DNA of 64,000 bases, taken from positions 60,576-124,575 of the forward strand of contig JBLNCY010000057.1 of NCBI GenBank assembly GCA_050261115.1, read 5' to 3'. Shown in pieces: positions 6,388 through 43,819 of the stretch (the stretch's first letter is position 1; each line of letters starts with the position of its first letter). Both the position numbers and the translations under genes were made by a program. Origin of the DNA: Methanocella sp. GTDB lineage: Archaea; Thermoproteota; Bathyarchaeia; Bathyarchaeales; Bathycorpusculaceae. The notes below the pieces were generated by a model. It saw only the letters and a program-made list of their open reading frames with translations. It was not told where the DNA came from and did not search any database.

Positions 6388-6454
6388 CAAGCCATTGTTG
6401 AACCCTTGGTTGATTCTATATATAAGGGGGGGTCTATGGCAGAGCAATAGACGC
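6388..6454 (-). repeat. Dispersed ~68-bp intergenic element, copy 1
   Basis: Reverse complement: gcgtctattgctctgccatagacccccccttatatatagaatcaaccaagggttcaacaatggcttg. Confidence 0.85.
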
Positions 6455-6700
6455 TGTTTATTTGTTGGGTGCCGGACTAATTGCAGAACCAAAAACAACA
6501 AACCGATTAATTCCCAGCTTTCACACTGGGTCCCTAGCAGGCGTTGGGTTGCTATCAAACCTGCCATTTTGTACCTAAAAATGTGCTAAACCGCCATTCC
6601 AGCGGCAGCTTTTGGGTTTTCCTTTTATAGGAAGGTTTTTAGTATAGTTATTGTATGAGTCTGTGAAAAAGTACAGAGTCTATAATGAGGTTAACATATT

Positions 6701-7429
6701 ATGTCCGTATTTGCAGCACCTGGAGCATATGACCGTGCAATAACTGTATTCTCGCCTGATGGCCGACTATTTCAAGTCGAATACGCGATGGAGCTCGTAA
6801 ATCGCGGGGCCACCATACTTGGCATCCAAACCTCAGAAGGATTAGTTCTAGGATCAGAAGAAAACATTGAAGTCCTCGAAGAAGCAGGCTACAGCTGGAA
6901 AATCTTCCGCGTCGACGATCACATCGGCGCAGCCATCGTCGGCTTATCAAGCGACGCCAGAATACTAATCGATCAAGCACGCATCTATGCTCAAAGTAAT
7001 AAACTAACATACGACGAACCCATCGACGTAGAAGTCGTAACCAAACGCATCTGCGACATCCAACAAATGTACACCCAACACGCAGGTGTCCGACCCTTCG
7101 GCGTATCCATAATCTTCGGCGGAGTCGACAAAACCGGTCCACGCGTCTTCGGAACCCACCCAAGCGGCACATACCGCGGCTACAAAGCCACCGCCTTGGG
7201 AGCAGGACGCGAAACCGTACTAAACATCCTAAAAGAAGAATACAAAGACGACATGACCATTGACAACACCATAAAATTAGCGGTAAAATGCCTAGTCAAA
7301 GCACTCGAAGCACGCCAGCTACCACCCAGAATCAAAATCGCAATCATCCCAGCAGCAACAAAGAAAATGGAAATGCTAAACGACAACACAGTCGAAGGAT
7401 ACATCAAAGAGCTGGGCCAAAGCAAGTGA
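6701..7429 (+). CDS. psmA: Proteasome alpha subunit
   Basis: YDRAITVFSPDGRLFQVEYA; VRPFGVS. Confidence 0.97.
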   Translation: MSVFAAPGAYDRAITVFSPDGRLFQVEYAMELVNRGATILGIQTSEGLVLGSEENIEVLEEAGYSWKIFRVDDHIGAAIVGLSSDARILIDQARIYAQSNKLTYDEPIDVEVVTKRICDIQQMYTQHAGVRPFGVSIIFGGVDKTGPRVFGTHPSGTYRGYKATALGAGRETVLNILKEEYKDDMTIDNTIKLAVKCLVKALEARQLPPRIKIAIIPAATKKMEMLNDNTVEGYIKELGQSK

Positions 7430-7436
7430 CAAACTG

Positions 7437-8123
7437 ATGAGCGAAAAGTTCACAGTCGCACGCTTAACCAGAGAAAACGAACACTTTGAAATCCTCGTAA
7501 AACCAGCAAAAGCGCTCTACTACCGCAACGGCAAAATCGCAGGGATAACTGAGGTTTTAGCCGCCGACATCATTTTTTCTGACGCTAACAAGGGCACCCG
7601 AGTCTCAGAGGAGGCTATGAAAAAAGCCTTCAAAACCACAGACACCCTAAAAATCGCAGATGAAATCCTCAAAAAAGGCACCCTTCAACTCACAACTGAA
7701 CAACGCAGAAAAATGGTCGAGGACAAAAAACGGCAAGTGATTGACTTTATCGCTCGACAGGCAGTTGACCCCAAAACCAACCTGCCTCATCCGCCCATGC
7801 GCATCGAAAACGCCATGGAGCAAATCCGTTACTCCATAGACCCATACAAGTCCGTGGAGGAGCAAGCAAAAGACATCGTTAAACTCTTACGACCTATCCT
7901 GCCGCTTAAAGTCGAGCAGGTCAAGGTTGCAGTAAAAATCCCCGCACAATACGCCTCCAGAGCCTACGGCACCGTTAAAACGTTGGGCACCATAAAACGT
8001 GAAGAATGGCGCGGCGACGGCTCTTGGTACGGCGAACTTGAATTACCCGCAGGCGCCTATGCTTCGCTTCTAAACAAGCTTGGCGACGCCACAAAGGGAA
8101 GCGGAGAAGCAAAAATAATCTAA
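7437..8123 (+). CDS. Ribosome maturation factor SBDS/Sdo1
   Basis: HFEILV, IFSDANKG, QLTTEQRR, PHPPMRIENAM; conserved position after psmA. Confidence 0.95.
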   Translation: MSEKFTVARLTRENEHFEILVKPAKALYYRNGKIAGITEVLAADIIFSDANKGTRVSEEAMKKAFKTTDTLKIADEILKKGTLQLTTEQRRKMVEDKKRQVIDFIARQAVDPKTNLPHPPMRIENAMEQIRYSIDPYKSVEEQAKDIVKLLRPILPLKVEQVKVAVKIPAQYASRAYGTVKTLGTIKREEWRGDGSWYGELELPAGAYASLLNKLGDATKGSGEAKII

Positions 8124-8146
8124 GTAATATGAAAAATGGTGATTTT

Positions 8147-8860
8147 ATGCCAACATTCTTTGAAAAAAAACAACTCGTAACGCCCGGAGAATTACTCGCA
8201 GAAGGCGACTACTTACCTGGCGAAAACACGTATATTGAAAACGGCAAGATATTCGCCGAAAGAATTGGACTCGTAGACAGCGATAACAAAAAAGTTAACG
8301 TGGTGGCACTTAGAGCATTTTACGTGCCAAAAGTCGGTGACATAGTAATCGGAACAGTTACTGAAGTAGGCTTCAACGGCTGGACCGTCGACATCAAATC
8401 CCCCTACACCGCCATGCTACGCGCATCCGATGTGCTTAGCAGGCCCTTTAAGCCCCAAAACGACGAGTTATCAGCAGTCCTAAACACAGGCGACCTCATC
8501 GTAGCCAAAATCGCCTCATACGACCGCGCACACGACCCACAATTAACCGTGGGCGAGCCAGGATTGGGAAAAATTACTCGCGGCCAACTCCTCAGAGTAA
8601 CCCCAACAAAGATTCCTCGTATCATCGGACGCAAGGGCTCGATGATATCTATGATTAAGCAGGAAACCAACTGTCAAATCATCCTTGGACTCAACGGCGT
8701 CGTTCTAGTCACAGGCAAGACCCCTGAAGAGGAAGCAATAGCCATCGGCGCAATCCGCAAAATTGAAGAAGAATCCCACACAAGCGGCTTAACCGATCGC
8801 ATCACACAGTTATTGAAAGAAAAGAAAACACCAGCCCAACTGGAGGAAATACAACAATGA
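8147..8860 (+). CDS. rrp4: Exosome RNA-binding subunit Rrp4
   Basis: [19 protein letters not shown] (S1), [11 protein letters not shown] (KH); GGTGA before ATG at 8147. Confidence 0.95.
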
Positions 8861-9603
8861 ACGAAAAAACTGAAAAACTAATCGACAAGAAAGGCATCCG
8901 CGGCGACGGAAGAAAAGCGGATGAACTTCGCCCCCTAAAACTACAGGTCGGCGTACTTCCAAACGCTGATGGATCAGCATACATTGAACACGGCAAAAAC
9001 AAAATCTTAGCCGCAGCATACGGCCCAAGAGAAATGCACCCCAAGCACCTCGCACAAGCAGATCGCATGGTGCTCAGATGCAGATATCACATGGCGCCCT
9101 TTAGCGTGCAAGAACGCAAATCTCCCGCACCCTCACGCAGAGAAGTTGAATTAAGCAAAGTAATCAAAGAATCCCTTGAACCAGCCCTATTCCTTGAACT
9201 CTACCCCCGCACAGGCGTCGACGTCTTTGTGGAGGTTTTACAGGCAGACGGCGGAACCCGCTGCGCAAGCATTACCGCTGCAGCTCTAGCTATTGCTGAT
9301 GCGGGTGTTCCGATGCGTGATTTAGTTGTGGCATGCGCCGCAGGCAAAGTTGAGGACCAAGTCGTCTTAGACCTCTACGACGCCGAGGACAAATTAGGCT
9401 CTGCCGATGTCCCCGTTGCTTACATGCCTAATCTAAACGCAATCACGTTACTGCAGATGGATGGTGTTCTTTCTCCAGCTGAATTCGAGAAAGCAGTCAC
9501 TATGGCTATGGATGGCTGCAAAAAGATCTACCAAATGCAGAAAGAAGCACTTAAGACCAAATATATGGCTATTAAAGAAACTGAGAAGGAGACTGAAGAG
9601 TAA
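8857..9603 (+). CDS. rrp41: Exosome exonuclease Rrp41
   Basis: [31 protein letters not shown]. Confidence 0.97.
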
Positions 9604-10394
9604 TGTCATCACTTGTAACTAAAGTCAAAGTAAAGCAAATCGAAGCCCTACTAGAGAAAGGCACACGTATGGATGGTAGAGGCTTACTTGATACCCGCGA
9701 AATCAAAATCGAACAAGGCCTCATAGAGAAAGCCGAGGGCTCAGCTCGTGTGCTTTTGGGCAAAACCGAGGTGCTTGTCGGGGTTAAAGTCGAAACAGGC
9801 GAACCCTTCCCAGACACACCAAAAGAGGGCGTCATGACTGTTAACGCGGAACTTGTACCGCTTGCGTCGCCCCACTTTGAGCCAGGTCCACCTGACGAAA
9901 ACAGTATTGAACTTGCTCGTGTTGTTGACCGAGGCATTAGAGAATCGCATGCTGTTGATACAGAGAAGCTGTGCATCGAGGAAGGCAAAAAAGTCTTTGT
10001 TGTGTTTGTCGATGTCTATGTCCTTAACCATGACGGCAACCTAATTGACGCTTCTGCAATCGCGGCTATGGCGGCGCTCATGAACACCAAAATGCCTAAC
10101 TATGAAATCAAAGACGGCGAACTAAAGATCAAGCAAGGCTACACACCGCTACCCATGAAGAGCCACCCCGTTACAGTCACCATCGGCAAAATCAATGGTA
10201 AACTCGTTGTTGACCCTGCATTGGAAGAGGAATCCGTTATGGATTCGCGCATAACCTTTGCATCTAATGAGGACGGAAACATCTGTGCTATCCAGAAGGG
10301 TCTGTCAGGCTTTTTCTCACCGCAACAGATTTTAGATGCCTCAAAGATTGCTCTGGACAAAGCAGTCGAATTAAGAAAGAAACTAAACTGGTGA
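9603..10394 (+). CDS. rrp42: Exosome subunit Rrp42
   Basis: RMDGRG, FEPGPPDENSIELARVVDRGIRES, HDGNLIDA. Confidence 0.97.
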   Translation: MSSLVTKVKVKQIEALLEKGTRMDGRGLLDTREIKIEQGLIEKAEGSARVLLGKTEVLVGVKVETGEPFPDTPKEGVMTVNAELVPLASPHFEPGPPDENSIELARVVDRGIRESHAVDTEKLCIEEGKKVFVVFVDVYVLNHDGNLIDASAIAAMAALMNTKMPNYEIKDGELKIKQGYTPLPMKSHPVTVTIGKINGKLVVDPALEEESVMDSRITFASNEDGNICAIQKGLSGFFSPQQILDASKIALDKAVELRKKLNW

Positions 10395-10400
10395 AAATAG

Positions 10401-10748
10401 TTGCCCAAGACAAAAAAAGTTGGTCCAACTCGAGGGTTCGGTCCTCGATACGGTTCCACTGTAAGAAAACGCTACGTCAAAGTCATAACTGAACTCAAAA
10501 AGCCACACAGATGCCCCCAATGCGGGTTTGTCCGTGTTAAACGCGAAAGCGTTGGCATCTGGGTATGCGGCAAATGCGCCTACACCTTCTCTGGCGGAGC
10601 GTACACTCCACACACGAAACTCGGCGCCGTTGCAAAACGTGCAGCTAAAGGCGGTCTAGAAGTTGAAGCGGCCCAAGCGCAGGTACCAGTAGTGGAAGCC
10701 GAAGAAGTTGAAGCCGCTGAAGAGGCAACTGAAGAAACCACCGAGTAA
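10401..10748 (+). CDS. rpl37ae: 50S ribosomal protein L37Ae (eL43) with acidic C-terminal tail
   Basis: GFGPRYG, CPQC...VGIWVCGKC, GGAY; TTG start after GGTGA. Confidence 0.93.
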   Translation: MPKTKKVGPTRGFGPRYGSTVRKRYVKVITELKKPHRCPQCGFVRVKRESVGIWVCGKCAYTFSGGAYTPHTKLGAVAKRAAKGGLEVEAAQAQVPVVEAEEVEAAEEATEETTE

Positions 10749-10802
10749 ACCTCTCTTCTTTTAACCTATTTTTATTAACTCATTCTATACTTAGGGTACG
10801 TT

Positions 10803-11060: not shown

Positions 11061-11074
11061 CTGTAATGGCGAGG

Positions 11075-11141
11075 GTTCTGTTGCTCTTGCGACCTACCCT
11101 CTCCCTTATATATAACCAACCATGGGTTTAACCTATGATTC
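11075..11141 (+). repeat. Dispersed ~68-bp intergenic element, copy 2
   Basis: gttctgttgctcttgcgacctaccctctcccttatatataaccaaccatgggtttaacctatgattc, between convergent genes. Confidence 0.85.
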
Positions 11142-11195
11142 GGGTATTTTGGCAAAATTTTAATATGTACTAAGCTAACGGCTGGCGGTAGCTAA

Positions 11196-15073: not shown

Positions 15074-15075
15074 GC

Positions 15076-17361: not shown

Positions 17362-17814
17362 ATGGCACAAACAACAAATAAATCCACAGTTACCTTGGTG
17401 AACGCTGAAGGCCAAATTGTAGGCCGCATGTGCAGCAAAATCGCCAAACTGCTCCTAAACGGCGAAGAAGTCATCATACTTAACGCTGAAAAGGCAGTGT
17501 TTTCCGGTAAGAAAAAGAGCAAAATCGCTGAAGCACACCTATTCCTAGAAGTAGGTGCGCCCTCCCGTGGTCCATTTCACTACCGTAGACCCGACCGTTT
17601 CCTACGTAAAACAGTTCGCGGTATGCTGCCCTTTAAGCAGCCTAAGGGCGTAGCCGCCTATAAGCGTCTAAAAGCCTTCATGGGTGTGCCCCCAGAGTTT
17701 GCAGGTAAAAAAATGATCTCTTTCGATGACGCCCAATCAACAGATTTGAAAGGGCCACACTTTACCTTAGCCGAACTCGCCAAAGAGATCGGCTGGAGAA
17801 ACAGGATGGAATAA
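17362..17814 (+). CDS. rpl13: 50S ribosomal protein L13 (uL13)
   Basis: NAEGQIVGR, NAEKAV, RPDRFLRKTVRGMLP. Confidence 0.95.
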   Translation: MAQTTNKSTVTLVNAEGQIVGRMCSKIAKLLLNGEEVIILNAEKAVFSGKKKSKIAEAHLFLEVGAPSRGPFHYRRPDRFLRKTVRGMLPFKQPKGVAAYKRLKAFMGVPPEFAGKKMISFDDAQSTDLKGPHFTLAELAKEIGWRNRME

Positions 17815-17816: not shown

Positions 17817-18236
17817 ATGCCAACAACACCAGCAAAGAAAGTCCTCGTAGTAAGTGGGAAAAGAAAAACAGCTGTAGCCCGAGCAATCATAAAGCAGGGC
17901 GCAGGCAAAGTCCGCATAAACATGACTCCAGTTGAAATATACTCGCCAGAGATTGCAAAAGCAAAAATCATGGAGCCACTCCTCCAAGCTGGCGGAGATG
18001 TCTGGACACAGCTAGACATGGACGTTAAAACCAGCGGTGGCGGCTATATGGGTCAAGCAGAGGCAGCCCGTATGGCAATCGCAAACGGCATCCTCAAATG
18101 GACCAAGAGCACGCATCTACGCACTGTCTTCAACGAATATGATCGCACAATGGTTGCGGGTGACTCTCGTACAAAAGAGACAAAGAAGGTTGGCGGAGCA
18201 GGCGCAAGGGCTAAAGAACAGAAATCATACCGATAA
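17817..18236 (+). CDS. rps9: 30S ribosomal protein S9 (uS9)
   Basis: SGKRKTAVARA, GGGYMGQAEA, GARAKEQKSYR. Confidence 0.97.
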   Translation: MPTTPAKKVLVVSGKRKTAVARAIIKQGAGKVRINMTPVEIYSPEIAKAKIMEPLLQAGGDVWTQLDMDVKTSGGGYMGQAEAARMAIANGILKWTKSTHLRTVFNEYDRTMVAGDSRTKETKKVGGAGARAKEQKSYR

Positions 18237-30155: not shown

Positions 30156-30224
30156 CAAGTGCAAGTTGAACCATGGGTTGACTCTATTTATGAGGGAGGA
30201 GATCCCTCGGCAGAGCAACAGGCC
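30156..30224 (-). repeat. Dispersed ~68-bp intergenic element, copy 3
   Basis: Reverse complement: ggcctgttgctctgccgagggatctcctccctcataaatagagtcaacccatggttcaacttgcacttg. Confidence 0.8.
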
Positions 30225-30370
30225 GCCGCCATGACACCTCCAAGATGTTAGCAAAAAGAGTCCAAACGATGCCCTGCGTCCTCTGTGGAAACCAGCGTTA
30301 AATCCTAAAAGGGACCAAAATTATTTAATTCCACCGCCGACACTTCTCAAAGCAATTAGTCGTTAGTCAT

Positions 30371-31636
30371 TTGGAGACACAAAAGTTGGCACACCAAGAA
30401 TGCATAAACTGCAAAACAACCTACAGCATAGACGAAATTGTTTACTTCTGCAGAAAATGCGGAGACATCCTAGAAATCAAATATGACCCCCAAGAGCTTG
30501 CGGAGGCGGCAAAGACTAGCGACTGGAAGACCAAGCCGCTCTCTGTCTGGCGCTACCGCCCCTTTATGCCAATCCATGACAGCACCAAACTCGTCACTTT
30601 AGGCGAAGGCGGCACAGGCCTACACCACTCAATCCACCTAGGCAAAGAGTTAGGCGTCACAAACCTCTACGTAAAAAATGAAGGCGAAAACCCCACAGGC
30701 AGCTTTAAAGACCGAGGCATGACCGTTGGCGTAACCAAAGCCGTTGAACTCGGCGTCCGCCATGTAATCTGTGCATCCACAGGTAACACGAGTGCAGCCC
30801 TCGCAGCCTACGCAGCACGCGCCGGCACAAAATGTACCGTACTGATTCCCTCAGGCAAAATCGCCTACGGTAAACTCAGCCAAGCCATGATTCATGGCGC
30901 TAAAGTACTGCAGGTGCGCGGAAACTTTGACGAAGCTCTAGAATTCGTGCTCAAGCTGGGCGAAACGCATAGAGACATTTACTTGCTTAACTCGATTAAC
31001 CCCTTCCGTATCGAAGGCCAAAAATCCCTCGGATACGAAATCTGTGAGCAACTAAACTATGATGCTCCAGACCGCATAATTATCCCAGTCGGCAACGCAG
31101 GCAACATCAGCGCCGTCTGGAAAGGCCTCAAAGAATTCTACGAACTAGGCCTAATCAAAAAACTCCCAAAAATGACCGGTATCCAAGCAGCGGGGTCTGC
31201 TCCCATCGCGCAAGCCATCAAAGTCAACAGTGAAAAAATCGTCCCCGTCGAACATCCCGAAACCATCGCGACCGCCATCCGCATCGGCGCACCCGTAAGC
31301 TGGAAAAAAGCCGTCAACGCCATCCGCGAATCAGGCGGCACAGCCGAGACAGTAACAGATGACGAAATCCTTGACGCCCAAAAAACATTAGCACAAACCG
31401 AGGGTATCTTTGTGGAGCCTGCATCTGCCTCGTCACTGGCAGGCCTCAAAAAACTAGTCAATAACGGAACCATACAGCGAGATGAGCGTGTCGTCTGCAT
31501 CACTACAGGTCACGGCCTAAAAGATCCAGACACCGCCATCAAACAATGCGAAAAACCCATCGAGGTAGACGCACAAATCGAAGCAATCGAGGCGGCTCTT
31601 GGCCTAAAAAAGAGCATAATTGCCCCTGCAAGGTAG
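30371..31636 (+). CDS. thrC: Threonine synthase
   Basis: N-terminal Zn ribbon, NPTGSFKDRG PLP lysine, CASTGNTSA, PVGNAGN, TGHGLKD. Confidence 0.95.
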   Translation: METQKLAHQECINCKTTYSIDEIVYFCRKCGDILEIKYDPQELAEAAKTSDWKTKPLSVWRYRPFMPIHDSTKLVTLGEGGTGLHHSIHLGKELGVTNLYVKNEGENPTGSFKDRGMTVGVTKAVELGVRHVICASTGNTSAALAAYAARAGTKCTVLIPSGKIAYGKLSQAMIHGAKVLQVRGNFDEALEFVLKLGETHRDIYLLNSINPFRIEGQKSLGYEICEQLNYDAPDRIIIPVGNAGNISAVWKGLKEFYELGLIKKLPKMTGIQAAGSAPIAQAIKVNSEKIVPVEHPETIATAIRIGAPVSWKKAVNAIRESGGTAETVTDDEILDAQKTLAQTEGIFVEPASASSLAGLKKLVNNGTIQRDERVVCITTGHGLKDPDTAIKQCEKPIEVDAQIEAIEAALGLKKSIIAPAR

Positions 31637-31642
31637 ATAGAC

Positions 31643-32671
31643 ATGAGAATAATACTGATTGGTTATGGAGTAGTCGGAAAAGGCGTAACAACAATTCTAA
31701 CACGCCGATATGCCCAACAAATCAAAGACGGCTTTAACCCCAAAATCGTCGCCATAGCCGACATAGACGGCGCAATCATAAACCCCCGTGGATTGAGCCC
31801 CGAGAAACTAGAAGAAATCAAGCAGCGTGGCTACCCGATTTCTGCCGATAAAGACTTTGGTGTTCAAGGCATCAAAGCGCTTGATGTCATCAAAGAGGTT
31901 GAGGCAGAAGTCGTCGTCGAAGTCACCCCCGTAAACATTCAAACCGCAGAACCCGCCCTCTCCCACATCACAACCGCCTTCAAAACAGGCAAACACGTCG
32001 TCACCACCAACAAAGGCCCCCTAGCACTTGCCATGCCCGCCCTAACCGAACTAGCTGAATACAATAATGTGTATTTCCGCTTCAGTGGCACAGTCGGCGG
32101 CGGAACCCCGATGCTTGAATTCGCCAAACGCTGTCTGGCGGGCGATCGAATCTTGGGCATAAAGGGTATCCTAAACGGCACAACCAACTACATCCTAACC
32201 GAGATGGCGCAGAACCGCGTCTCCTTCCAAGACGCTCTATCTCAAGCACAAAAACTTGGATACGCAGAACGCGAGCCCTCCATGGATATCGACGGGTTTG
32301 ATACATCATGCAAGACAGTTATTCTTGCTAACTGGATACTAAACCAGAAAGTCACCCTCAAAGACGTGGACCGCACAGGCATCCGCTACGTAACCCTCCA
32401 AGACCTTGATGAAGCAGCCAAACGGGGCAACACCATCAAACTCATAGGTTCAGTGGATGACAAGAGCAAGCCTACAGTCAAACCCATGGAGGTCCCAAAG
32501 ACCAGCCCTATGTGTGTTAGCGGCGTTCTTAACGCAGTGACTTATCAATGTGAGTTCGCCGCTGAGCAGACAATCATCGGTCGGGGTGCCGGTTCGATTG
32601 AGACGGCAGGTGCAGTTTTAAGAGACCTCTTAGACATAAGACATAAGTTAGCATCTAGACTACTAACGTAG
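31643..32671 (+). CDS. hom: Homoserine dehydrogenase
   Basis: GYGVVG, VVTTNKGP, GILNGTTNYIL, GYAEREPSMDIDG, GRGAG. Confidence 0.95.
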   Translation: MRIILIGYGVVGKGVTTILTRRYAQQIKDGFNPKIVAIADIDGAIINPRGLSPEKLEEIKQRGYPISADKDFGVQGIKALDVIKEVEAEVVVEVTPVNIQTAEPALSHITTAFKTGKHVVTTNKGPLALAMPALTELAEYNNVYFRFSGTVGGGTPMLEFAKRCLAGDRILGIKGILNGTTNYILTEMAQNRVSFQDALSQAQKLGYAEREPSMDIDGFDTSCKTVILANWILNQKVTLKDVDRTGIRYVTLQDLDEAAKRGNTIKLIGSVDDKSKPTVKPMEVPKTSPMCVSGVLNAVTYQCEFAAEQTIIGRGAGSIETAGAVLRDLLDIRHKLASRLLT

Positions 32672-32690
32672 AGAAAGGCGAAAAGAAATC

Positions 32691-34097
32691 ATGAAAATTG
32701 TTATGAAGTTCGGTGGAACCAGCGTAGGCACAGGCGAGAACATACGCCACGTGGCCGACTTAGTTGCACAGTACAGCAAAGAACACAAAATCGCCGTCGT
32801 CGTCTCGGCACTTGCAGGCGTCACTAACAGCCTAATCGAAACCGGCTGCAAGGCACAGAAAAGCGACCAAAAAAACATCGAAGCATTCACCTCTAGCCTG
32901 CTAAAGAAGCACACAGACGCCATAGCCACGGCGATTACAAGTAAAAGCATCCAAAAAGAAGTAACCGAAATAACACAAAAAAGCATCGCCGAACTAGAAA
33001 AAGTCCTAACAGGCATCTGCTATGTGGGCGAATTAACCCCGAAATCAAAAGACTACGTAATGTCGTTTGGCGAACGCCTCTCTGCACCAATAGTTTGGGG
33101 AGCAATCAAAGACCACAACATACAGAGCCAATTCTTCACCGGCAAAGAATCAGGCATAGTTACCGACTCCAACTTTGGCGAAGCAGAACCCCTCATGAAC
33201 TACACAACCCACCTACTACGTGAACGATTGGAGCCTTTGATGGAGCAAGGCACTATCCCAGTTGTCACAGGCTTCATAGCCGCAAACCAAGACGGCATCG
33301 TAACCACCGTCGGCCGCGGAGGCAGCGACTACACAGCCACCATACTCGGCGTAGCCCTAAAAGCCGACGAGGTATGGATATGGACAGACGTAGACGGCAT
33401 CATGACCACCGATCCCAAACTTGTCCCAGCTGCACGCATGCTACCCCAACTAAGCTATCAAGAGGCAGCCGAAATGGCTATCTTCGGCGCCAAAGCCATG
33501 CATCCACGAGCTCTCGGCCCAGTATCTAAAGAAAACATACCTGTGCGCATAAGAAACACCCAAAACCCATCCAATATGGGCACACTAATCACAAAGGCGC
33601 CGGCGGCTAACGAGACTAAACCCGTAAAGGCAGTTGCCATGATTAAAGACGTCGGTATGCTAAACGTCTATGGCGCTGGCATGGTGGGTGCGCCGGGTAG
33701 CTATGCAAAGGTCTTTGATGTGCTTGGCAGAAATAACATAAACGTCATGATGATTTCCGCCGCTGCATCCGAAGCCAACATATCCATGATAGTGAAACGC
33801 TCAGTGCTGGGCAGAGCCGTAAGCAATATCGAAATCGCATTGCAGGAAAGAGGCGGCATAGTCAGTGAAGTCACAACCGAAGATGACGTTGCAGTTATCG
33901 CGGTTATGGGTGCTCACATGAAAGGTACGCTGGGTGTGGCGTCGAAAATCTTTAGCATCGTAGCCAAGATGGGTATAAACATCCGCATGATCGCACAAGG
34001 CAGCTCCGAACTCAACATCAGCTTTGTTGTGAAGGAGAAGGATGGCGCTGCCGTCGTTAGAGCAATCCATGAAGAGTTTAACCTCGACAAAGCCTAA
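32691..34097 (+). CDS. lysC: Aspartate kinase with two ACT domains
   Basis: MKFGGTSV, SFGERLS, GRGGSDYTA, WTDVDG, QGSSELNIS. Confidence 0.95.
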   Translation: MKIVMKFGGTSVGTGENIRHVADLVAQYSKEHKIAVVVSALAGVTNSLIETGCKAQKSDQKNIEAFTSSLLKKHTDAIATAITSKSIQKEVTEITQKSIAELEKVLTGICYVGELTPKSKDYVMSFGERLSAPIVWGAIKDHNIQSQFFTGKESGIVTDSNFGEAEPLMNYTTHLLRERLEPLMEQGTIPVVTGFIAANQDGIVTTVGRGGSDYTATILGVALKADEVWIWTDVDGIMTTDPKLVPAARMLPQLSYQEAAEMAIFGAKAMHPRALGPVSKENIPVRIRNTQNPSNMGTLITKAPAANETKPVKAVAMIKDVGMLNVYGAGMVGAPGSYAKVFDVLGRNNINVMMISAAASEANISMIVKRSVLGRAVSNIEIALQERGGIVSEVTTEDDVAVIAVMGAHMKGTLGVASKIFSIVAKMGINIRMIAQGSSELNISFVVKEKDGAAVVRAIHEEFNLDKA

Positions 34098-34197
34098 CTT
34101 TTCCATTTTTGTTTCTGTGTGCTTGCAGGCACAACTATTTTTATTTCTTGAATATCTGAACCCTTTAGTTTTAGCAGTAGAATACTGGGAGTTATGA

Positions 34198-34680: not shown

Positions 34681-34785
34681 GCAACTGCCCAGCAGCCGTA
34701 AGTATCCTCTATGATGTATCTGAAAAAGATTACTTGTCCACTGAAGACTTGCTGTTTTGGGTGACGTAGTGGTAATTCGGCTGCT

Positions 34786-34853
34786 GTTCTGTTGCTTTGC
34801 CGAGCTACCCTTCCCTTATATATAGAACCAACCAAGGGTTGAACCTGTGCTTG
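34786..34853 (+). repeat. Dispersed ~68-bp intergenic element, copy 4
   Basis: gttctgttgctttgccgagctacccttcccttatatatagaaccaaccaagggttgaacctgtgcttg, between convergent genes. Confidence 0.88.
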
Positions 34854-34957
34854 GTAAAAATCGTGAGGAAAGAATACCTATGGCGCGGGGTGTTTAGTTA
34901 TTGGTCATCTTGGAAGCTATAGTCCAAAAAATTGAAATAAAGAAAAGAGTGAACCGC

Positions 34958-35769: not shown

Positions 35770-36345
35770 TTATCCTACCAAGTTCGATAGAACCTCGTAT
35801 GCTTTGAGGCTGTCCTTCTTTTCAACTACCATTATGGTTTCTGTCCAGCAAGAGATGAATTCAACAATGTTCACGTTCTGCTCAGCAAGCAACGTGGCAA
35901 GGAACGCAACGACACCCGGCGTGTTTTCCAGTTCTTCGGGAGAATGAACAACAATCATAGTGCAGTTCTCGTGTTTGATCAGAGAAGTTGTGCGTTCTGG
36001 CATGTCGCTTCGATCCATGAGGTAAACGAATTTGTCCAGTAAGTCGACTTTCATGCCTTTTTGGTTGAGTTCTTTGGCGGTGATCATGACAGCTTTGCGG
36101 TCGTAGACTGCGATGCTGCTTTTCCGTAGCAGATGGAGGACTTTTTCTTCTCTTTTTTGGCGGTGCTTTTGGAGTTCTTCGGCATAGCGGCGGAGGGCGG
36201 CTTTGATGGCGCTTGTGTCGCTGACTTTTAGTTCCGCCTGGAGTTGCCGTGAGAGTTCGCTTAGGTTCACGATTCCCTTCTCGAGTGCTTCTAGTAGGTA
36301 GGGTTTGTTGCGTAGGTGGTTACGGACGTTTTGAGCGACGGTCAT
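35770..36345 (-). CDS. Archaeal ACT-domain protein with N-terminal HTH-like region (putative amino-acid-sensing regulator)
   Basis: GIVNLSELSRQL...AIKAALRR; TPGVVAFLATLLAEQNVNIVEFISCWTETI. Confidence 0.78.
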   Translation of the reverse strand: MTVAQNVRNHLRNKPYLLEALEKGIVNLSELSRQLQAELKVSDTSAIKAALRRYAEELQKHRQKREEKVLHLLRKSSIAVYDRKAVMITAKELNQKGMKVDLLDKFVYLMDRSDMPERTTSLIKHENCTMIVVHSPEELENTPGVVAFLATLLAEQNVNIVEFISCWTETIMVVEKKDSLKAYEVLSNLVG

Positions 36346-37704: not shown

Positions 37705-37742
37705 CTTTTTAAAACTTGGGGGAGGGAAAGGAAACGTCAAAG

Positions 37743-39221: not shown

Positions 39222-39245
39222 CGCTTAAAAATTTAAACTGATAGG

Positions 39246-40403
39246 TTGAATAGGGCTTTGGCTCCACAAGATAGCACGTTCAAAAAATGCAAAAAAGCGG
39301 TTCTGCTTCTCGAAGACGGAACGTCATTTATCGGTAAAGGTTTTGGTGCAACAGCAAAAATCTCTGGGGAGGTTGTTTTCTCCACTCAGATGGTGGGGTA
39401 CCCTGAAGCCTTGACTGATCCGTCCTATAAGGGACAGGTTTTAACTTTCACTTATCCAATGGTTGGCAACTATGGTGTTCCCGATAAAGTCATGGATTTG
39501 GGGTTGCCGCTTTATTTTGAGTCAGATCATATTCAGCCTCAAGGCTTAATCATCCATGAACTCTGCCACGAACCCTTCCACTGGGCATCAACACGCACGC
39601 TGGACCAGTGGCTTGCAGACGAAGGTGTCCCCGGTATCTATGGTGTAGACACTAGGCGCTTAACAAAGAAGCTGCGAACCCACGGTGTAATGCTTGGTAT
39701 ATTGCAGGTCTTCGAGGAAGGCGATGAACCAGACATGGAGGCGCTGCTTAAGAACTGTAAAAGTATCGCTGATCCAAACGAAACTGACCTTGTTAAGCAA
39801 GTCTCGGTTAAAAAACCTGTAACTTACAGTGTAGACGGCAAAAAAACTGCGGTGCTCATCGATTGCGGCGTTAAATTCAGCATCATACGAAACCTCCTAA
39901 AACGAGGCATAAATGTAATACGGGTACCGTATGATACGTCTGCAAAAGACATCCTCTCATACAACCCCGACGGAGTCTTCTTAAGCAACGGACCCGGCGA
40001 CCCCAAAAAATGCGTTAAAACAATCGCTGCCATACGTGAGTTGAGTGAAAAGAAACCGCTTATGGGTATTTGTCTTGGTGCACAAATTCTTGCTTTGGCA
40101 CTTGGCGGCGATACTTACAAACTAAAATTCGGCCACCGTGCCCAGAATCAGCCTGCACTCGACTTATACGATAGCCGCTGCTACATCACCACACAGAATC
40201 ACGGTTACGCTATCAATATGGATTCGCTCCAAAAGACCCCGCTGGAGCCATGGTTTATCAATCCAAACGACAAAACCGTTGAGGGTATCCGTCACAAGAG
40301 CAAACCTGTTTTTGCTGTACAGTGGCACCCTGAAGCTTCACCTGGTCCCTATGACACTGAACTCTTATTTGATAAATTCGCAAAAGCCTTGGAGGTTAAC
40401 TAA
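39246..40403 (+). CDS. carA: Carbamoyl-phosphate synthase small subunit
   Basis: LTDPSYKGQ, LSNGPGDP, GICLG, QNHGY, QWHPE. Confidence 0.96.
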   Translation: MNRALAPQDSTFKKCKKAVLLLEDGTSFIGKGFGATAKISGEVVFSTQMVGYPEALTDPSYKGQVLTFTYPMVGNYGVPDKVMDLGLPLYFESDHIQPQGLIIHELCHEPFHWASTRTLDQWLADEGVPGIYGVDTRRLTKKLRTHGVMLGILQVFEEGDEPDMEALLKNCKSIADPNETDLVKQVSVKKPVTYSVDGKKTAVLIDCGVKFSIIRNLLKRGINVIRVPYDTSAKDILSYNPDGVFLSNGPGDPKKCVKTIAAIRELSEKKPLMGICLGAQILALALGGDTYKLKFGHRAQNQPALDLYDSRCYITTQNHGYAINMDSLQKTPLEPWFINPNDKTVEGIRHKSKPVFAVQWHPEASPGPYDTELLFDKFAKALEVN

Positions 40404-40405
40404 GC

Positions 40406-43400
40406 ATGCCAAAGTTCGATTGGATAAAGAAAGTTCTAGTTCTCGGTAGCGGCGCCATTAAGATCGGGGAAGCTGCTGAATTCGACTATAGCGGCAGCCA
40501 ATGCCTAAAAGCGCTCCGCGAGGACGGTATCGAGACTGTTATCATTAACCCAAACATTGCAACTATCCAAACCGATCCACGCCTCAGCGGCAAAGTCTAC
40601 CTGCTTCCAGTCACACCAGAATTTGTAGAGAAAGTCATTGCTAAAGAACGCCCCGACGGCATCTTGCTAGGTTTTGGCGGGCAAACCGCCCTTAACTGTG
40701 GTTTAGAACTTGAAAAGAAGGGTATACTCCAGAAGTATAACGTGAAAGTCCTTGGCACCCCTGTAAAGGCCATTGAGGACACTGGGGATCGCGAGAGGTT
40801 CCGTCAAGCCATGGAAAAAGCAGGTGTACCCTTCCTAAAGAGCCAAGCTGCCACCAGTGTCAAGCAGGCTCTTGATATCGCTGACCAAATCGGTTATCCT
40901 GTTATGGTTCGTGTAGCTTACACACTGGGCGGCAAAGGCGCAGGTGTTGCTCACAACCCTAAGGAGCTCAAAGAGATTACAACGGTCGGCCTTGCCCAGA
41001 GCCGTATCAACCAGGTCCTCGTTGAGGAGTATGTGGGGCACTGGAAGGAGGTTGAGTACGAAGTTATGCGTGACTACAGCGATAACTGTCTCACCGTTTG
41101 TAACATGGAAAACTTTGACCCCATGGGCATCCATACTGGCGATAGCATCGTTGTGGCGCCGTCTCAGACCATGACTAACCGAGAGTATCACCATATTCGT
41201 TCTATATCTATTAACGCCATTCGCAGTCTCGGCATAGTTGGTGAATGTAACATACAGTGGGCACTTCACCCCCGGTCCGAGGAGTGCCGCGTTATTGAAG
41301 TAAACAGCAGGATGTCGCGTAGTAGTGCGCTTGCCAGCAAAGTCACGGGTTATCCGCTCGCCTATATCGCGACTAAACTTACTTTGGGCTATACCCTGCC
41401 AGAGCTCATTAACAAAGTCACTGCAACCACAACCGCCTGCTTTGAGCCTGCCCTCGACTATATTACTGTAAAAATCCCCCGTTGGGACCTTCAGAAGTTC
41501 CGCAATGCAGACAGACATGTCGGGCCTCAGATGCGTAGCGTCGGCGAAGTCATGGCTATCGGTCGCTGCTTTGAAGAGGCGCTCCAGAAGGCTGTTCGCA
41601 TGCTAGATACCGGTAAAATCGGCTTGGTTTGCAACCCGGAAGATGAAGAACCCGAATCTGAAGCGCACCTGCGCGACGAGATGGCGCATCCCACCGATGA
41701 GCGTCTCTACAAGGTTGCTAAAGCGCTTAAAATCGGCATCCCCGTTAAGGAGATTTACCGTTTAAGTGGTGTTGACCCCTTCTTCTTGTACAAGATCCAA
41801 AACATCGTTAACATGGAGGCTCAGCTTAAGAAACTCAACTTAGCTGAGGAAGGTGCCGCAGAAGTCATCCGTGAAGCTAAACGTCTTGGTTTCTCTGATG
41901 CGCAGATAGCGGTTTGCCAGAAGACTGACGAGATGACTATCCGTAACTTCCGTAAATCTGCAGGTATAGTTCCGGTTGTAAAGCAGATTGATACTTTGGC
42001 TGCAGAGTGGCCCGCTAAAACCAATTACCTCTACATGACCTATGGTGGCGACGAAGACGATATAGAATTTGTTAAAACAAAAAGCAAAGTCGTTGTCTTA
42101 GGTGCAGGTGTATTTCGTATAGGTAGTAGTGTAGAGTTTGATTGGTGCGGTGTCAACACAGTTTGGGCGCTAAAGAAGAATGGTGTCGAAGAAGCCATCA
42201 TGGTCAACTATAACCCTGAAACCGTCAGCACAGACTACGACATATCTGACAAATTGTACTTTGAAGAATTAACCGTTGAACGCATCCTAGACATCTATGA
42301 TAAGGAAGACCCGATGGGTGTTATCACAAGCGTCGGTGGCCAAATCCCCAACAACCTCTCTATGCCCCTCTCTGAGGCAGGCGCTACCATACTTGGCACC
42401 TCCGCCCAAGATGTAGACCTTGCAGAAGACAGAAGCAAATTCAGCGCACTCCTTGACCAACTGGGTATTTCGCAGCCGAGTTGGAGTAAACTTCAATCCA
42501 TCGAGGAGGCAAAGCGGTTTGCTACCAAAATCGGTTACCCCGTGCTGGTGCGTCCCAGCTATGTGCTCTCGGGCTCTGCAATGCGAGTTGCCTACAATGA
42601 AGTCGCACTTGAGAACTTCCTTAACTTAGCAGCAAAGGTAAGCCGCGATCACCCCGTTGTGATTAGCAAATTCATTACGCGCGCTAAAGAGGTTGAGGTG
42701 GATGGTGTCTCTGATGGCGACAACGTCTTTATCGGTGCAATCATGGAGCACGTTGAGAATGCTGGCGTCCATAGTGGCGATGCAACTATGACTATTCCTC
42801 CGCAGGCGCTAAAACCTGAGGTTCAAAAGGACATCGAAACTGCAACCATAAAAATTGTTAAGGCACTAAGGATCCATGGACCCTATAACATCCAGTACCT
42901 CGTCAAAGACGACGTTGTCCACGTTATCGAATGCAACCTCCGCGCTTCGCGATCTATGCCGTTTGTTAGCAAATGCCGTGGAATTAACCTCATCGAGCTT
43001 GCCACTCTTGCGATGCTGGGCAAAAAGATTGATGGCACCAAGTTGTCCCCCATGAAGGTGGCTCCTCACGTCGGGGTTAAGGTGCCTCAGTTTAGCTTTA
43101 TGCGATTGAGCGGCGCTGATCCAGTTTTGGGTGTTGAGATGCTTAGCACAGGCGAAGTTGCCTGTATCGGAGAGAGTTTTGCCGACGCATTCAGCAAAGC
43201 CTTGCAATCAGCAGAGTTCACTATACCACCCCGAGGCGGCTCAGTATTAATCAGCGTCGGCGGCGACGATGAACGCAAAGCCCGTGTGGTCCCGATAGCT
43301 AAAGCGTTCCAAGAGATGTGCTTCAAAATTTACGCTACCCGCAACACTTCTAAGGTCCTTGAAGCTCACAGCATCGCTAACACAGTGCTGCACAAAGTCA

Positions 43401-43681
43401 AGGATCCCGACGTTACACCAAACATACTAGACTACTTGCAGGAGCGAAAAATCGACCTCGTCATCAACGTGCCCATGGCTAACCGCAGAAGCAATATGAG
43501 CGACATAATCACCGATGGCTACATTATCCGTCGGCAAGCTGTGGAATTCAACGTGCCAGTCATCACTAACTTGCAGTTGGCGCAGGCGCTGGTTGATGTG
43601 ATGCGTCAGAAGAACCAGAATGGTAACAGTATCCGCTCGCTAAATGAGTATATGGATGAGTTACCTTGGAAGAAATGGTAA
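40406..43681 (+). CDS. carB: Carbamoyl-phosphate synthase large subunit
   Basis: GSGAIKIGEAAEFDYSG, two ATP-grasp halves, C-terminal MGS domain. Confidence 0.97.
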   Translation: MPKFDWIKKVLVLGSGAIKIGEAAEFDYSGSQCLKALREDGIETVIINPNIATIQTDPRLSGKVYLLPVTPEFVEKVIAKERPDGILLGFGGQTALNCGLELEKKGILQKYNVKVLGTPVKAIEDTGDRERFRQAMEKAGVPFLKSQAATSVKQALDIADQIGYPVMVRVAYTLGGKGAGVAHNPKELKEITTVGLAQSRINQVLVEEYVGHWKEVEYEVMRDYSDNCLTVCNMENFDPMGIHTGDSIVVAPSQTMTNREYHHIRSISINAIRSLGIVGECNIQWALHPRSEECRVIEVNSRMSRSSALASKVTGYPLAYIATKLTLGYTLPELINKVTATTTACFEPALDYITVKIPRWDLQKFRNADRHVGPQMRSVGEVMAIGRCFEEALQKAVRMLDTGKIGLVCNPEDEEPESEAHLRDEMAHPTDERLYKVAKALKIGIPVKEIYRLSGVDPFFLYKIQNIVNMEAQLKKLNLAEEGAAEVIREAKRLGFSDAQIAVCQKTDEMTIRNFRKSAGIVPVVKQIDTLAAEWPAKTNYLYMTYGGDEDDIEFVKTKSKVVVLGAGVFRIGSSVEFDWCGVNTVWALKKNGVEEAIMVNYNPETVSTDYDISDKLYFEELTVERILDIYDKEDPMGVITSVGGQIPNNLSMPLSEAGATILGTSAQDVDLAEDRSKFSALLDQLGISQPSWSKLQSIEEAKRFATKIGYPVLVRPSYVLSGSAMRVAYNEVALENFLNLAAKVSRDHPVVISKFITRAKEVEVDGVSDGDNVFIGAIMEHVENAGVHSGDATMTIPPQALKPEVQKDIETATIKIVKALRIHGPYNIQYLVKDDVVHVIECNLRASRSMPFVSKCRGINLIELATLAMLGKKIDGTKLSPMKVAPHVGVKVPQFSFMRLSGADPVLGVEMLSTGEVACIGESFADAFSKALQSAEFTIPPRGGSVLISVGGDDERKARVVPIAKAFQEMCFKIYATRNTSKVLEAHSIANTVLHKVKDPDVTPNILDYLQERKIDLVINVPMANRRSNMSDIITDGYIIRRQAVEFNVPVITNLQLAQALVDVMRQKNQNGNSIRSLNEYMDELPWKKW

Positions 43682-43750
43682 ATGGGGCTTTTGCCTCCCC
43701 TTTTTCGGGGTAGTGGTATGAAAAATAGTGTGTTGGGTTTTGGTGGTTTA

Positions 43751-43819
43751 GTTCTGTTTCTCTCACACTAGACCCCCTCTCTTATATATAGAGTCAACCC
43801 TTGGTTGAACCTGTGCTTG
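43751..43819 (+). repeat. Dispersed ~68-bp intergenic element, copy 5
   Basis: gttctgtttctctcacactagaccccctctcttatatatagagtcaacccttggttgaacctgtgcttg; contains the perfect inverted repeat TCAACC-CTT-GGTTGA. Confidence 0.88.

Follow-up and report, generated by a model that had tools for sequence, protein, structure and literature searches.

An abundant intergenic cassette of a Bathyarchaeia genome with the anatomy of an archaeal promoter

What is the unannotated repeat of about 68 bp that recurs five times between the genes of a 64,000-nucleotide stretch of Bathyarchaeia DNA (hereafter, the window)? A sequence-only reading had offered four roles for it, namely a REP/BIME-like repeat, a site-specific recombination site, an ORB-like initiator site, and a parS-like loading or boundary site for SMC-ScpAB. 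We consider it somewhat probable that each copy is instead a self-contained and portable archaeal promoter cassette, whose firing, start site and binding proteins we infer from its layout.

The five copies in the window

Alignment and pattern matching place five cassettes of what we term class A in the window, at the coordinates and on the strands that the sequence-only reading had given. Copy c1 (6388..6454, minus strand; TATA box 6417..6425, palindrome 6400..6412) lies between a DUF488 gene (5454..6050, minus strand), which it faces, and a proteasome alpha gene (6701..7429, plus strand). Copy c2 (11075..11141, plus strand; TATA box 11106..11114, palindrome 11117..11129) begins 15 nt past the stop codon of a Pcc1 gene that converges with an HTH_20 gene, while c3 (30156..30224, minus strand; palindrome 30168..30180), with the variant TATA box TCATAAATA at 30185..30193, is flanked by a PQ-loop gene and the gene of a PALP enzyme and is oriented away from the latter. 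Copy c4 (34786..34853, plus strand) is located between the convergent genes for an LEA_2 protein and an unknown protein of 199 amino acids. It consists of a left (L) module made up of GTTCTGTTGCTTTGCC and a variable hexamer (34786..34807), a C-run at the place where a BRE would sit (34808..34815), the TATA box TTATATATA (34816..34824), the palindrome CAACC-AAG-GGTTG (34829..34841), and an AAC-N5-CTTGG(T) block (34842..34855), all on the plus strand; its start site is predicted at about 34846-34850 from the geometry of the TATA box and by analogy with the HF2 repeats (PMC8707807). Copy c5 (43751..43819, plus strand; TATA box 43782..43790, palindrome 43795..43807) lies 70 nt past carB and 59 nt ahead of a PAS histidine-kinase gene, where synteny with relatives stops.

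Aligned with one another, the five copies are identical in 32 columns, and CAACC-N3-GGTT is present in each of them, the spacers being AAG, ATG, CAT, AAG and CTT, respectively. A degenerate search pattern of 26 nt, allowing up to three mismatches, finds exactly these five sites in the window and none in 100 dinucleotide-preserving shuffles. Each of the five lies between open reading frames, two of them (c2 and c4) between convergent genes, as had been proposed.

Anatomy, copy number and genomic distribution

A genome-wide scan with a profile built from the five copies, a step that the sequence-only reading had advised, returned 109 matches (E<=1e-3) in the 2.15-Mb assembly. An 18-mer core with up to three substitutions occurs at 101 genomic sites versus none in a reversed-genome control, and a model of the left half (R1) yields 107 matches. 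The family amounts to about 107 cassettes spread across all contigs, with a mean density of roughly one in every 20 kb. Class A units measure 64-69 bp and are composed of the upstream module CTGTTGCTYTGCC, the C-run, the near-invariant TTATATATA, the CAACC-N3-GGTT palindrome, and an AAC-N5-CTTGAA block at the place where an archaeal start site is expected. Almost no variation is seen in the TATA box and its flanks, where 45-51 of 51 copies agree per column, and the positions that vary freely are those of the hexamer, of the spacer of 3 nt and of the 5 nt ahead of CTTGAA. Conservation ends with CTTGAA; the flanks are unique, with no pair of copies alike upstream and only two class A pairs alike downstream. 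Class B, with 35 copies, shares the left half with class A but has a different right half of about 110 nt; 19 of 21 copies are 139-146 bp long (the other two 130 and 138 bp), and the palindrome is missing from all 35 copies, although the rest is common to both classes.

The TATA region is itself almost palindromic, and the direction of the cassette therefore rests on the cases of two relatives described below and on analogy. Left and right halves occur in differing combinations around this core: an L-TATA-L' arrangement at C22:33665 and an R'-TATA-R arrangement at C22:17477 lie 16.2 kb apart on one contig of the host, and a second L-TATA-L' was found in a relative (G300). Neither terminal inverted repeats nor target duplications were detected in the copies examined (31 of class A, 21 of class B) or at the c4 junction, in agreement with the sequence-only reading. 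No Rfam family, which that reading had named as a finding that would speak against it, was matched (none at E<=1), and no tRNA was found in the cassettes.

The cassettes are not tied to a particular gene context. Among 90 typed copies, 24 are co-directional and 23 opposed in tandem spacers, while 22 reside in divergent and 21 in convergent spacers, so that orientation and context look random; half of the copies have no co-directional upstream gene. In neither direction do the copies keep a constant distance from a start codon, and several nearby genes possess, as judged by eye, a TTTAAA-type box of their own between the cassette and the gene. Of the 15 class B copies that are co-directional with the gene ahead of them, 10 have a left module beginning no more than about 5 nt from the stop codon of that gene, and some class A copies leave only 47-69 nt to the end of a convergent gene.

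Gain, loss and relatives of the cassette

The closest relative of the host genome (G000), the genome G320 (81% identity), provides a clean empty site for c4: the alignment extends to the last base before the cassette and picks up again no more than about 3 nt beyond it. Cassettes are present in G320 at the c2 and c3 sites, with two in the c3-equivalent spacer, and one lies directly past the Pcc1 stop codon in G000, G320, G046 and G005, that is, at the c2 site and in three other species; coding identity between the species that retain the site is 78-83%. Copying, gain and loss of the cassette involve the whole discrete unit, with neither duplications nor inverted ends. Different sub-variants have been amplified in each species; the CAAGCTACC hexamer region, for instance, is found in 6 of 13 matches in G320 and in 0 of 37 in G000. 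Breaks of synteny relative to G320 carry copies at c5, at two class B copies on contig C10, and at C57:42731 and C57:51503.

Of 61 genomes searched, four contain at least four matches, three contain one or two, and 54 none. In a species-genome collection, the 18-mer core occurs in 64 stretches, of which 53 are labelled Bathyarchaeia, Bathyarchaeota or uncultured archaeon; about 17 would be expected by chance according to our own estimate, and the matches have the layout GCTCTG..CTAsmC / C-run / TATA / TTSAAC in common. The same core is present in many Bathyarchaeia assemblies, and in other genomes the left half with its TATA box is followed by other conserved non-coding bodies. A contig of a viral collection carries three cassettes about 80 bp apart, a tandem spacing that leaves no room for an RNA product. 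The proposal of a lineage-restricted, dispersed, non-coding cis-element holds; no Rfam family was matched, and three Pfam family searches revealed no linked transposase.

What the cassette may do

The palindrome had led the sequence-only reading to a site for a dimeric protein or a recombinase, with invariant arms around a variable spacer. This description is correct for the five window copies but does not extend to the family: both 4-nt arms are intact in 32 of 51 full-length copies, only the left arm is changed in 15, only the right in two, and both in two. Since the arms are conserved unequally, with C>T in the left arm (AACC) in 12 of 51 copies and G>A in the right arm (GGTT) in one of 51, the reading as a symmetric dimer site is weakened; the stronger conservation of the GGTT arm might stem from a further palindrome, GGTT-S-AACC, that overlaps the first and has GGTT in common with it. 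A chromosomal role of such a site, be it dif/Xer-like, parS-like for SMC loading or as a boundary, or ORB-like, is in our view highly improbable. The 5+3+5 palindrome with its variable spacer in all window copies, the recombined halves, which suggest exchange within the core, and the copies at rearranged sites would fit it, but dif has a single copy on each replicon, and sites of the parS and ORB types are clustered and low in number, whereas about 107 cassettes are spread over all contigs, and we have rejected these options. In addition, the outermost pair of the palindrome is broken in 10 of 23 copies, an arm base of c5 is polymorphic (43803, G>A in RNA-library contigs that cross it), and the palindrome is lacking in class B. 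An inversion of the 30.3-34.1 kb region is shared by the window and G320, which has no c4, and hence did not arise from recombination between c3 and c4, unless G320 lost c4 precisely. A hairpin acting single-stranded in the manner of REP elements, either as RNA within longer transcripts or as ssDNA, is just as hard to sustain. The C>T changes of the left arm would keep G-U or G-T pairing and exceed the overall strand bias (7.4% C>T versus 4.3% G>A), many copies adjoin the stop codon of a co-directional gene, and RNA-library contigs continue from carB through c5; against this stand a stem of only 4-5 bp, the absence of compensatory double changes in 23 aligned and 51 profile-aligned copies, the sharing of GGTT with the overlapping palindrome, and the half of the copies without a co-directional upstream gene. 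A Pfam family search of the genome detected no Y1 (RAYT) transposase, and the REP/BIME-like option was consequently discarded on this count and for want of compensatory change.

Two further explanations are less remote, though both are doubtful. The cassette might be a non-autonomous transposable element (MITE- or PATE-like) whose enzyme is encoded elsewhere or was lost from the assembly, with the AT-rich core as site of cleavage or synapsis and its promoter likeness incidental. The filled and empty c4 sites, the restriction of multiple copies to some congeners, the species-specific sub-variants, the random orientation with survival at gene 3' ends, the copies at synteny breaks and the reciprocal L-L' and R'-R junctions are all consistent with mobility. 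However, the copies lack the ends and duplications of a transposon, their conservation peaks at the central TATA box and its flanks rather than at the ends, and they persist at the same site across diverged species. As the sequence-only reading had noted for the window, no transposase is linked to the cassettes: in three Pfam family searches, Y1 was absent, no TnpB-type protein scored above the cut-off, and the single DDE_Tnp_1 gene (C55:1256-1705) is unlinked. It is about equally doubtful that the cassettes are dedicated promoters of small non-coding RNA genes, with the 110-nt class B body as one RNA and class A heading short locus-specific or antisense regulatory RNAs. The solitary occurrence of copies in any gene context, the several non-coding bodies that follow the same left half, and the tight length of class B speak for it. 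Yet, the conserved sequence of class A reaches no more than about 10 nt downstream of the predicted start, and class A in places has little room before a convergent gene end. Class B has no consensus fold (RNAalifold 0.0 kcal with default scoring) and a mean single-sequence z-score of -0.49 with one of 27 below -2. There is also no Rfam match and no regular distance to an oligo-T terminator.

A portable promoter is the function that the anatomy fits best, with a near-invariant TATA box and conservation that ends about where the start should lie. In the cassette, the TTATATATA box would serve as the binding site of TBP, and the C-run in BRE position would be contacted by one of the three TFB paralogues of the host, with RNA polymerase initiating about 22-27 nt further downstream, within the AAC-N5-CTTGAA block at which family conservation stops. 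The palindrome would then lie at about -17 to -5, where archaeal repressors usually sit, and the CTGTTGCTYTGCC module at about -57 to -45, the usual place of activators. Several observations speak against this reading: the C-run differs from the A-rich BRE of 55 ordinary promoter-like sites of the genome, orientation and context look random, the distance to start codons is not constant, cassettes stand in close tandem on the viral-collection contig, and the number of TFB paralogues, two to six across 46 congeners, does not track the presence of the family. The ordinary TATA position in the host genome is 40-55 nt ahead of start codons, and the spacings in two relatives come close to it, with an apparent start codon 51 nt past the TATA box in G007 (an ORF pyrB-like by eye) and about 33-35 nt past it in G300 (an acetyltransferase by eye). 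The claim that the copies are not ordinary promoters is upheld in part: most do not serve a neighbouring protein gene as its proximal promoter, but promoter anatomy nevertheless describes them best. Most copies would probably yield orphan or antisense transcripts rather than drive the neighbouring gene. The output of c2 would run into the HTH_20 gene, that of c4 into the gene of the 199-aa protein, that of c3 into the PQ-loop gene, and that of c5 in sense direction into the leader of the kinase gene, while transcription from c1 would head for DUF488 and give a leader of about 340 nt. RNA libraries were examined as assembled contigs; those of one sample run from carB across c5 and do not begin inside it, and a contig from another study begins at about 43761 (from from_end values), upstream of the predicted c5 start.

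Comparison with known systems

The class I intergenic repeats of the halovirus HF2 (56-58 bp) are promoters in which transcription starts within a conserved gamma motif, where mutations abolish activity, and some also fire weakly in reverse, according to Russ, Pfeiffer and Dyall-Smith (2021, PMC8707807). The repeats resemble the cassettes in their conserved blocks with free positions, their central TATA block, and a last block over the start, which is predicted in our case; there are seven of them in a single virus genome, where they stand at the head of transcription units, and their activity has been measured. The cassettes, in contrast, whose activity is predicted, number about 100 in the genome of a cell, lie in either orientation and in whatever gene context, have a C-run in place of the BRE, and possess a long upstream module.

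Correia elements are small, abundant and intergenic; they carry promoter elements, mark points of rearrangement, and possess inverted ends of 26 bp together with a TA duplication. The cassettes share with them their size, abundance, intergenic location, promoter features and occurrence at rearrangement points, but not the inverted ends or the duplication. The cassettes also resemble REP/BIME-REPIN elements in being short, mosaic repeats, in their dispersal between genes, and in their frequent location at the 3' ends of genes; they differ in having no compensated hairpin, no Y1 transposase, and a TATA box as core. Promoter-carrying MITEs, among them the Correia elements of Neisseria, are named in PMC3575422, and REP/BIME-REPIN elements with RAYT transposases in both PMC3575422 and PMC8049555.

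The putative mobile promoters of prokaryotes, whose reuse is described by Nijveen, Matus-Garcia and van Passel (2012, PMC3575422), are promoter-bearing intergenic sequences of high similarity that recur in unrelated places of one genome and in different taxa, and often have no recognisable mobile element; in these respects, the cassettes are alike. Those groups were defined upstream of genes and are shared between bacteria, whereas half of the cassettes face no gene, and their copy number is very high for a single family.

Anatomy and placement of the cassette family

The sequence-only reading of this DNA had described a repeat of about 68 bp that recurs in five intergenic copies, and this observation stood and could be extended to a genome-wide family, while the interpretation of the repeat as a chromosomal protein site gave way to that of a promoter cassette, the reading now favoured. 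The five copies (c1 to c5), located at 6388..6454 (minus strand), 11075..11141 (plus), 30156..30224 (minus), 34786..34853 (plus) and 43751..43819 (plus), align with 32 invariant columns, carry CAACC-N3-GGTT without exception and all lie between open reading frames; a degenerate 26-nt pattern, searched with at most three mismatches, found exactly five sites in the window and none in 100 shuffles. By Pfam, the neighbours are DUF488 and proteasome alpha for c1, Pcc1 and an HTH_20 protein for c2, a PQ-loop protein and a PALP enzyme for c3, LEA_2 and a 199-aa protein without an assigned family for c4, and carB and a PAS histidine kinase for c5. ARAGORN detected no tRNA gene in the window, and Rfam returned no match there at gathering thresholds.

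A scan of the source genome (G000; an assembly of 2.15 Mb in 66 contigs, 94.85% complete) with a profile built from the five copies, as had been proposed together with the repeat, found 109 places at E ≤ 1e-3. An 18-mer core, with up to three substitutions, occurs at 101 sites in this genome versus none in its reversed sequence, and a sequence-only model of the left half of the cassette (R1), built from 45 copies, has 107 matches. With 101 core sites in about 2,100 spacers, approximately one in 20 intergenic spacers of G000 is occupied.

All copies have in common a left half composed of CTGTTGCTYTGCC, a free hexamer, a C-run and TTATATATAGA. Class A, with 49 copies including all five of the window, continues into a right half that reads RYCAACC-N3-GGTTSAAC-N5-CTTGAA; the right half of class B (35 copies) is a G/T-rich body of about 110 nt terminating in GGCTGCACAACTG, and another 17 copies possess different right halves. 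Measured from CTGTTGCT to the right end, 30 of 31 class A units span 61-69 bp; of 21 class B units, 19 span 139-146 bp and the remaining two 130 and 138 bp. The flanking DNA is unique: upstream flanks show no mutual similarity, and downstream similarity is limited to the class B bodies and two class A pairs. The AT-rich, 8-bp TATA box TTATATATA is retained in 45-51 of 51 copies per column; the C-run ahead of it is kept too, and free variation is found in the hexamer, the 3-nt spacer and the five nucleotides preceding CTTGAA. A coding function of class B was considered and rejected; its open frames are accounted for by base composition, and its indels do not come in threes.

By a crude in-house gene caller (2191 genes, 85.7% coding), 94 of the 101 copies are intergenic. 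Among 90 copies with two typed neighbours, 24 are situated in tandem spacers with the cassette co-directional, 23 in tandem spacers with it opposed, 22 in divergent and 21 in convergent spacers, a split of orientation and context that approximates the expectation from spacer length alone. The cassette often abuts the stop codon of a co-directional upstream gene, as it does in ten of 15 such class B cases. With regard to terminators, the distance between oligo-T tracts and cassettes is irregular.

Site occupancy, gene order and distribution

The closest genome found (G320; 81-84% gene identity) provides one clean case of presence and absence, at c4, where the alignment runs to the last base ahead of the cassette, picks up again within about 3 nt beyond it and shows no duplication. 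An open frame of G320 crosses the insertion point and meets a stop six codons later, and the G000 frame is apparently broken upstream of c4 by a 1-nt alignment gap; window positions 34690-34785 are a remnant of the C-terminal coding region of a gene. At the c2 site, the Pcc1 stop codon is immediately followed by a cassette in G000, G320 and two further genomes (G046 and G005), the orthologues having a diverged left module and a different right half, and the G320 spacer corresponding to that of c3 contains two cassettes on the same strand. G046 carries a different unit of the C-run/TATA type at the c1 site; in G320, no recognisable cassette is present at c1 or at the A- copy beside tRNA-Ile, where the spacers do not align. 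A hexamer region common to six of the 13 G320 matches is found in none of the 37 G000 matches. The empty c4 site, the orthologous cassettes at c2 and c3 and the G320 sub-variants show that cassettes are added and removed as blocks, with separate amplification of variants in each species and lasting occupation of some sites.

The 30.3-34.1 kb block of the window (30300-34120), which consists of the gene for the PALP enzyme and two more, is found on the opposite strand in 23 of the 30 other congeners listed as well as in G333 and G305, where it adjoins the 35.8-43.7 kb block that starts with a gene for a 191-aa protein (35770..36345); its inverted state is common to G000 and G320. The breakpoints of this inversion fall in the spacers bearing c3 and c4. 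Recombination between c3 and c4 was considered as its cause and rejected because G320 shares the inversion and is without c4. Synteny with the relatives ends at c5. In the comparison of G000 with G320, two class B copies on contig C10 and the copies at C57:42731 and C57:51503 have flanks that do not map together but to separate places, strands or contigs; breaks were seen at five of the 11 copies looked at, and with G320 in 130 contigs and no genome-wide baseline for the comparison or the count, these cassette-linked breaks are suggestive only. For annotation, cassettes mark spacers whose gene order differs between relatives.

Contig C22 of G000 contains the only R'-TATA-R junction of this genome (at 17477; 17447-17517) and its only L-TATA-L' junction (at 33665; 33636-33720), L and R being the left and right modules and a prime denoting an inverted half; the two are 16.2 kb apart and correspond to about 1850-1920 and 18040-18120 of locus L075. 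This pair is what would be expected if exchange in the palindromic TATA core had inverted the segment between two direct copies. The genome G014 fits the un-inverted order, with the right flank 14.6 kb from the interior end at 2035, which points towards it; in G320, G333, G305, G001, G005 and G046, this region has been rearranged in another way or is divided among contigs. Because the relatives other than G014 are uninformative, the C22 inversion rests on the structure of the junctions. The L-TATA-L' junction lies between divergent genes, identified by eye as those for adenylate kinase and a PadR-like protein. Another L-TATA-L' is present in G300.

Three other stretches of the window deserve mention in their own right. 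About 90 nt directly 5' of the proteasome-alpha gene (6615-6700), the first gene of a same-strand run ending with Pcc1, are near-identical in G046 and G320, with the remaining spacer unalignable, and may form a conserved leader or regulatory element. Positions 3805-3913, part of the spacer that precedes the gene at 4107, have six matches in G320 (four on C7, one each on C5 and C14; 77-91% identity) and may belong to another small repeat family. The PAS/histidine-kinase gene after c5 (43878-45803) finds numerous partial, paralogue-like matches in each congener as well as within G000, and a syntenic orthologue is absent.

R1, which like the strict right-module pattern under-counts diverged cassettes (both missed the positional orthologues of c2), so that the genus and class counts, that of the gapped left-half pattern below included, are likewise under-counts, matched three of 24 other genomes of the same genus (eight, one and one matches) and none of 16 genomes from other families of the order; a class-wide sample of 150 genomes added G300 and G305, with 24 matches each among only 38 candidates scored, and G075 with four. 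A gapped left-half pattern yielded 37 matches in G000, 13 in G320, nine in G333, four in G007, two in G338 and one each in G344 and G024, none in 54 other genomes, and one control hit. In a species-genome collection, the 18-mer core was found in 64 stretches, 53 of them labelled Bathyarchaeia, Bathyarchaeota or uncultured archaeon, with about 17 expected by chance (our own estimate); these stretches have a common layout but other left-module variants and right halves. A scan of JGI metagenomes recovered two stretches, both from other species, and blastn searches of phage and plasmid collections gave no match. On a contig from a viral collection (L181, viral being the collection label only), three tandem cassettes lie about 80 bp apart between convergent ORFs, as part of four related-type cassettes within 13.5 kb (3420-3600 and 6773). 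At loci L157, L159, L160 (G300), L048 (G007), L173, L174 (G075), L101 and L091, the same left half and TATA are followed by a different conserved non-coding unit, which contains a second C-run/TATAGG box and an inverted repeat, has no Rfam match and is absent from G000.

The palindrome and rival readings

The palindrome of the class A right half is a conserved, asymmetric sequence and not a co-varying hairpin, because compensatory changes are absent and its arms change unequally. When 23 copies taken from the best-scoring and exact-pattern ones were aligned, three of the five pairs were invariant and the outer pair was broken in ten copies; the covariation check suggested for this palindrome turned out negative, with two-sided change in none of the five pairs and no compensatory change among 51 profile-aligned copies. 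Both 4-nt arms are intact in 32 of these 51; the left arm alone is changed in 15 (12 of them C>T), the right arm alone in two (one of them G>A), and both arms in two, without compensation. The overall strand bias (C>T at 48 of 651 positions, G>A at 13 of 301) is smaller than this asymmetry, a possible cause of which is that the forward strand tolerates G-U or G-T pairs; it is also possible that an overlapping second palindrome, GGTT-S-AACC, holds GGTT tighter.

These data make it very improbable that the family consists of hairpin elements, and the REP/BIME-like option was abandoned since the palindrome is not kept as a hairpin and a RAYT gene was not found. A chromosomal protein site, as originally proposed, can hardly be what the cassettes are: dif/Xer, parS or ORB sites would come as one or a few copies per replicon, clustered at the terminus or origin, whereas the 107 matches are spread over the contigs. 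A non-autonomous transposon in which the TATA-like core is incidental would account for c4 being present or absent as a discrete unit between G000 and G320 (one clean case), but we judge it unlikely, given that 31 class A copies lack terminal inverted repeats and 21 class B copies reach at best 9/13 by eye, that no target-site duplication is seen in the flanks of these copies or at the c4 junction (one clean junction), and that searches for Y1_Tnp, TnpB-type and DDE_Tnp_1 proteins revealed no transposase partner. The suggested check for co-occurrence with Y1 transposases gave no PF01797 match in G000, nothing in G000 exceeded the Pfam cut-off for a TnpB-type domain, and the single DDE_Tnp_1 match is unlinked, far from any cassette; a partner enzyme could be missing from the 94.85% complete assembly.

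We are likewise doubtful that the cassettes serve as promoters of small-RNA genes. Five copies are found 140-210 nt upstream of tRNA genes on the same strand, and none of the 49 tRNA genes of the genome has a core within 80 nt upstream; neither is the cassette the proximal promoter of RNase P, SRP or SSU rRNA. Class B yields no consensus fold (0.0 kcal in RNAalifold under default scoring; mean single-sequence z-score of -0.49). Membership in a known Rfam family, an outcome for which the sequence-only reading had allowed, was not found at E ≤ 1 for 18 class A and B loci and 11 loci of other genomes.

The portable-promoter reading

On balance, we lean towards the view that the cassette is a portable promoter. 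Ordinary promoter-like sites of G000 (n = 55) have the form TTTAAATA, positions -4 and -3 being A in 41-49%, and are positioned 40-55 nt before start codons; directly 5' of the cassette TATA, a purine-/A-rich BRE is absent and a C-run (CCCTCCC) is found in that position. Transcription from an archaeal core promoter would begin about 22-27 nt downstream of its TATA box. If the cassette TATA is centred at about -27, its geometry would put the start site inside the AAC-N5-CTTGAA block, and it is exactly at this block that conservation stops. Two cases in other genomes speak for the forward direction, in that an apparent start codon follows the cassette TATA by 51 nt (G007; a pyrB-like ORF) or 33 nt (G300; an acetyltransferase-like ORF), both ORFs being named by eye and not by Pfam. 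Among the G000 copies, the distance to the downstream start codon is not regular (25-698 nt forward, without a mode), no start-codon distance is preferred in either direction, and half of the copies face no gene; several nearby genes have, by eye, an apparent TTTAAA-type box of their own between gene and cassette.

Six RNA libraries contain parts of the region, and four of these (X13, X14, X15 and X18) were compared with the window in the form of contigs, which are blind to starts and strands; DNA runs X1-X12 also contain this species. The X13 and X14 contigs, from one sample, extend from carB through c5, as contigs that carry no start-site or strand information, and differ from the window at three positions inside c5, one of them in the GGTT arm; c3 and c4 have little or no RNA depth in the contigs of all four.

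The genome encodes three TFB proteins (C43:~32.2-33.2 kb, C51:~28.7-29.6 kb, C47:~2.9-3.9 kb) and two TBP proteins (C38:38.3-38.8 kb, C64:59.6-60.1 kb); among 46 congeners, the number of TFB paralogues (2 to 6) bears no relation to the presence of the cassette family. One class A copy is located 326 nt upstream of a TBP gene, and one class B copy on the downstream side of a TFB gene, about 1 kb past its last TFIIB-domain match. In the stretch C46:32364-32630, another class B copy, with a shortened TATA, precedes the RNase P RNA gene by about 225 nt and shares its strand; by eye, this gene has its own TATA-like box closer by.

A bolder joint reading, to which we give little credence at present, is that some Bathyarchaeia run a second, dedicated promoter class that multiplies as orphan starts and whose palindromic TATA core is a preferred crossover. 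Each such promoter would combine a GCTCTG-type module on its upstream side, a C-rich block where the BRE would sit, TTATATATA and a TTSAAC/CAACC-N3-GGTT block, with one particular TFB/TBP pair plus a dimeric factor as its readers. Exchange in the TATA core would swap left and right halves, with L-TATA-L' and R'-TATA-R as the resulting junctions, and inversions and changes in gene order would follow from it; if so, the promoters themselves would be the main dispersed recombination substrate of the genome.

Read as portable promoters, the cassettes are a candidate natural case of promoters that move without genes in archaea. Should they fire, they would contribute in a major way to orphan and antisense transcription in an archaeal group that is widespread and almost uncultured, and if they are silent, they would constitute an abundant archaeal repeat family without a recognisable mobilising enzyme. 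Their near-invariant C-run/TATA block offers a probe for which TFB paralogue reads which promoters.

No description of such elements in Bathyarchaeia was found in the literature searched. The nearest published parallels are the repeats of the halovirus HF2 (PMC8707807), the only archaeal parallel found, and the 'putative mobile promoters' (PMC3575422). The class I repeats of HF2 are described there as units of 56-58 bp and proven promoters, in which the start lies inside the last conserved block and mutation of this block abolishes activity (PMC8707807). HF2 repeats and cassettes are alike in being repeated units with conserved blocks at the TATA box and the start site, the latter being placed in the cassette by geometry.
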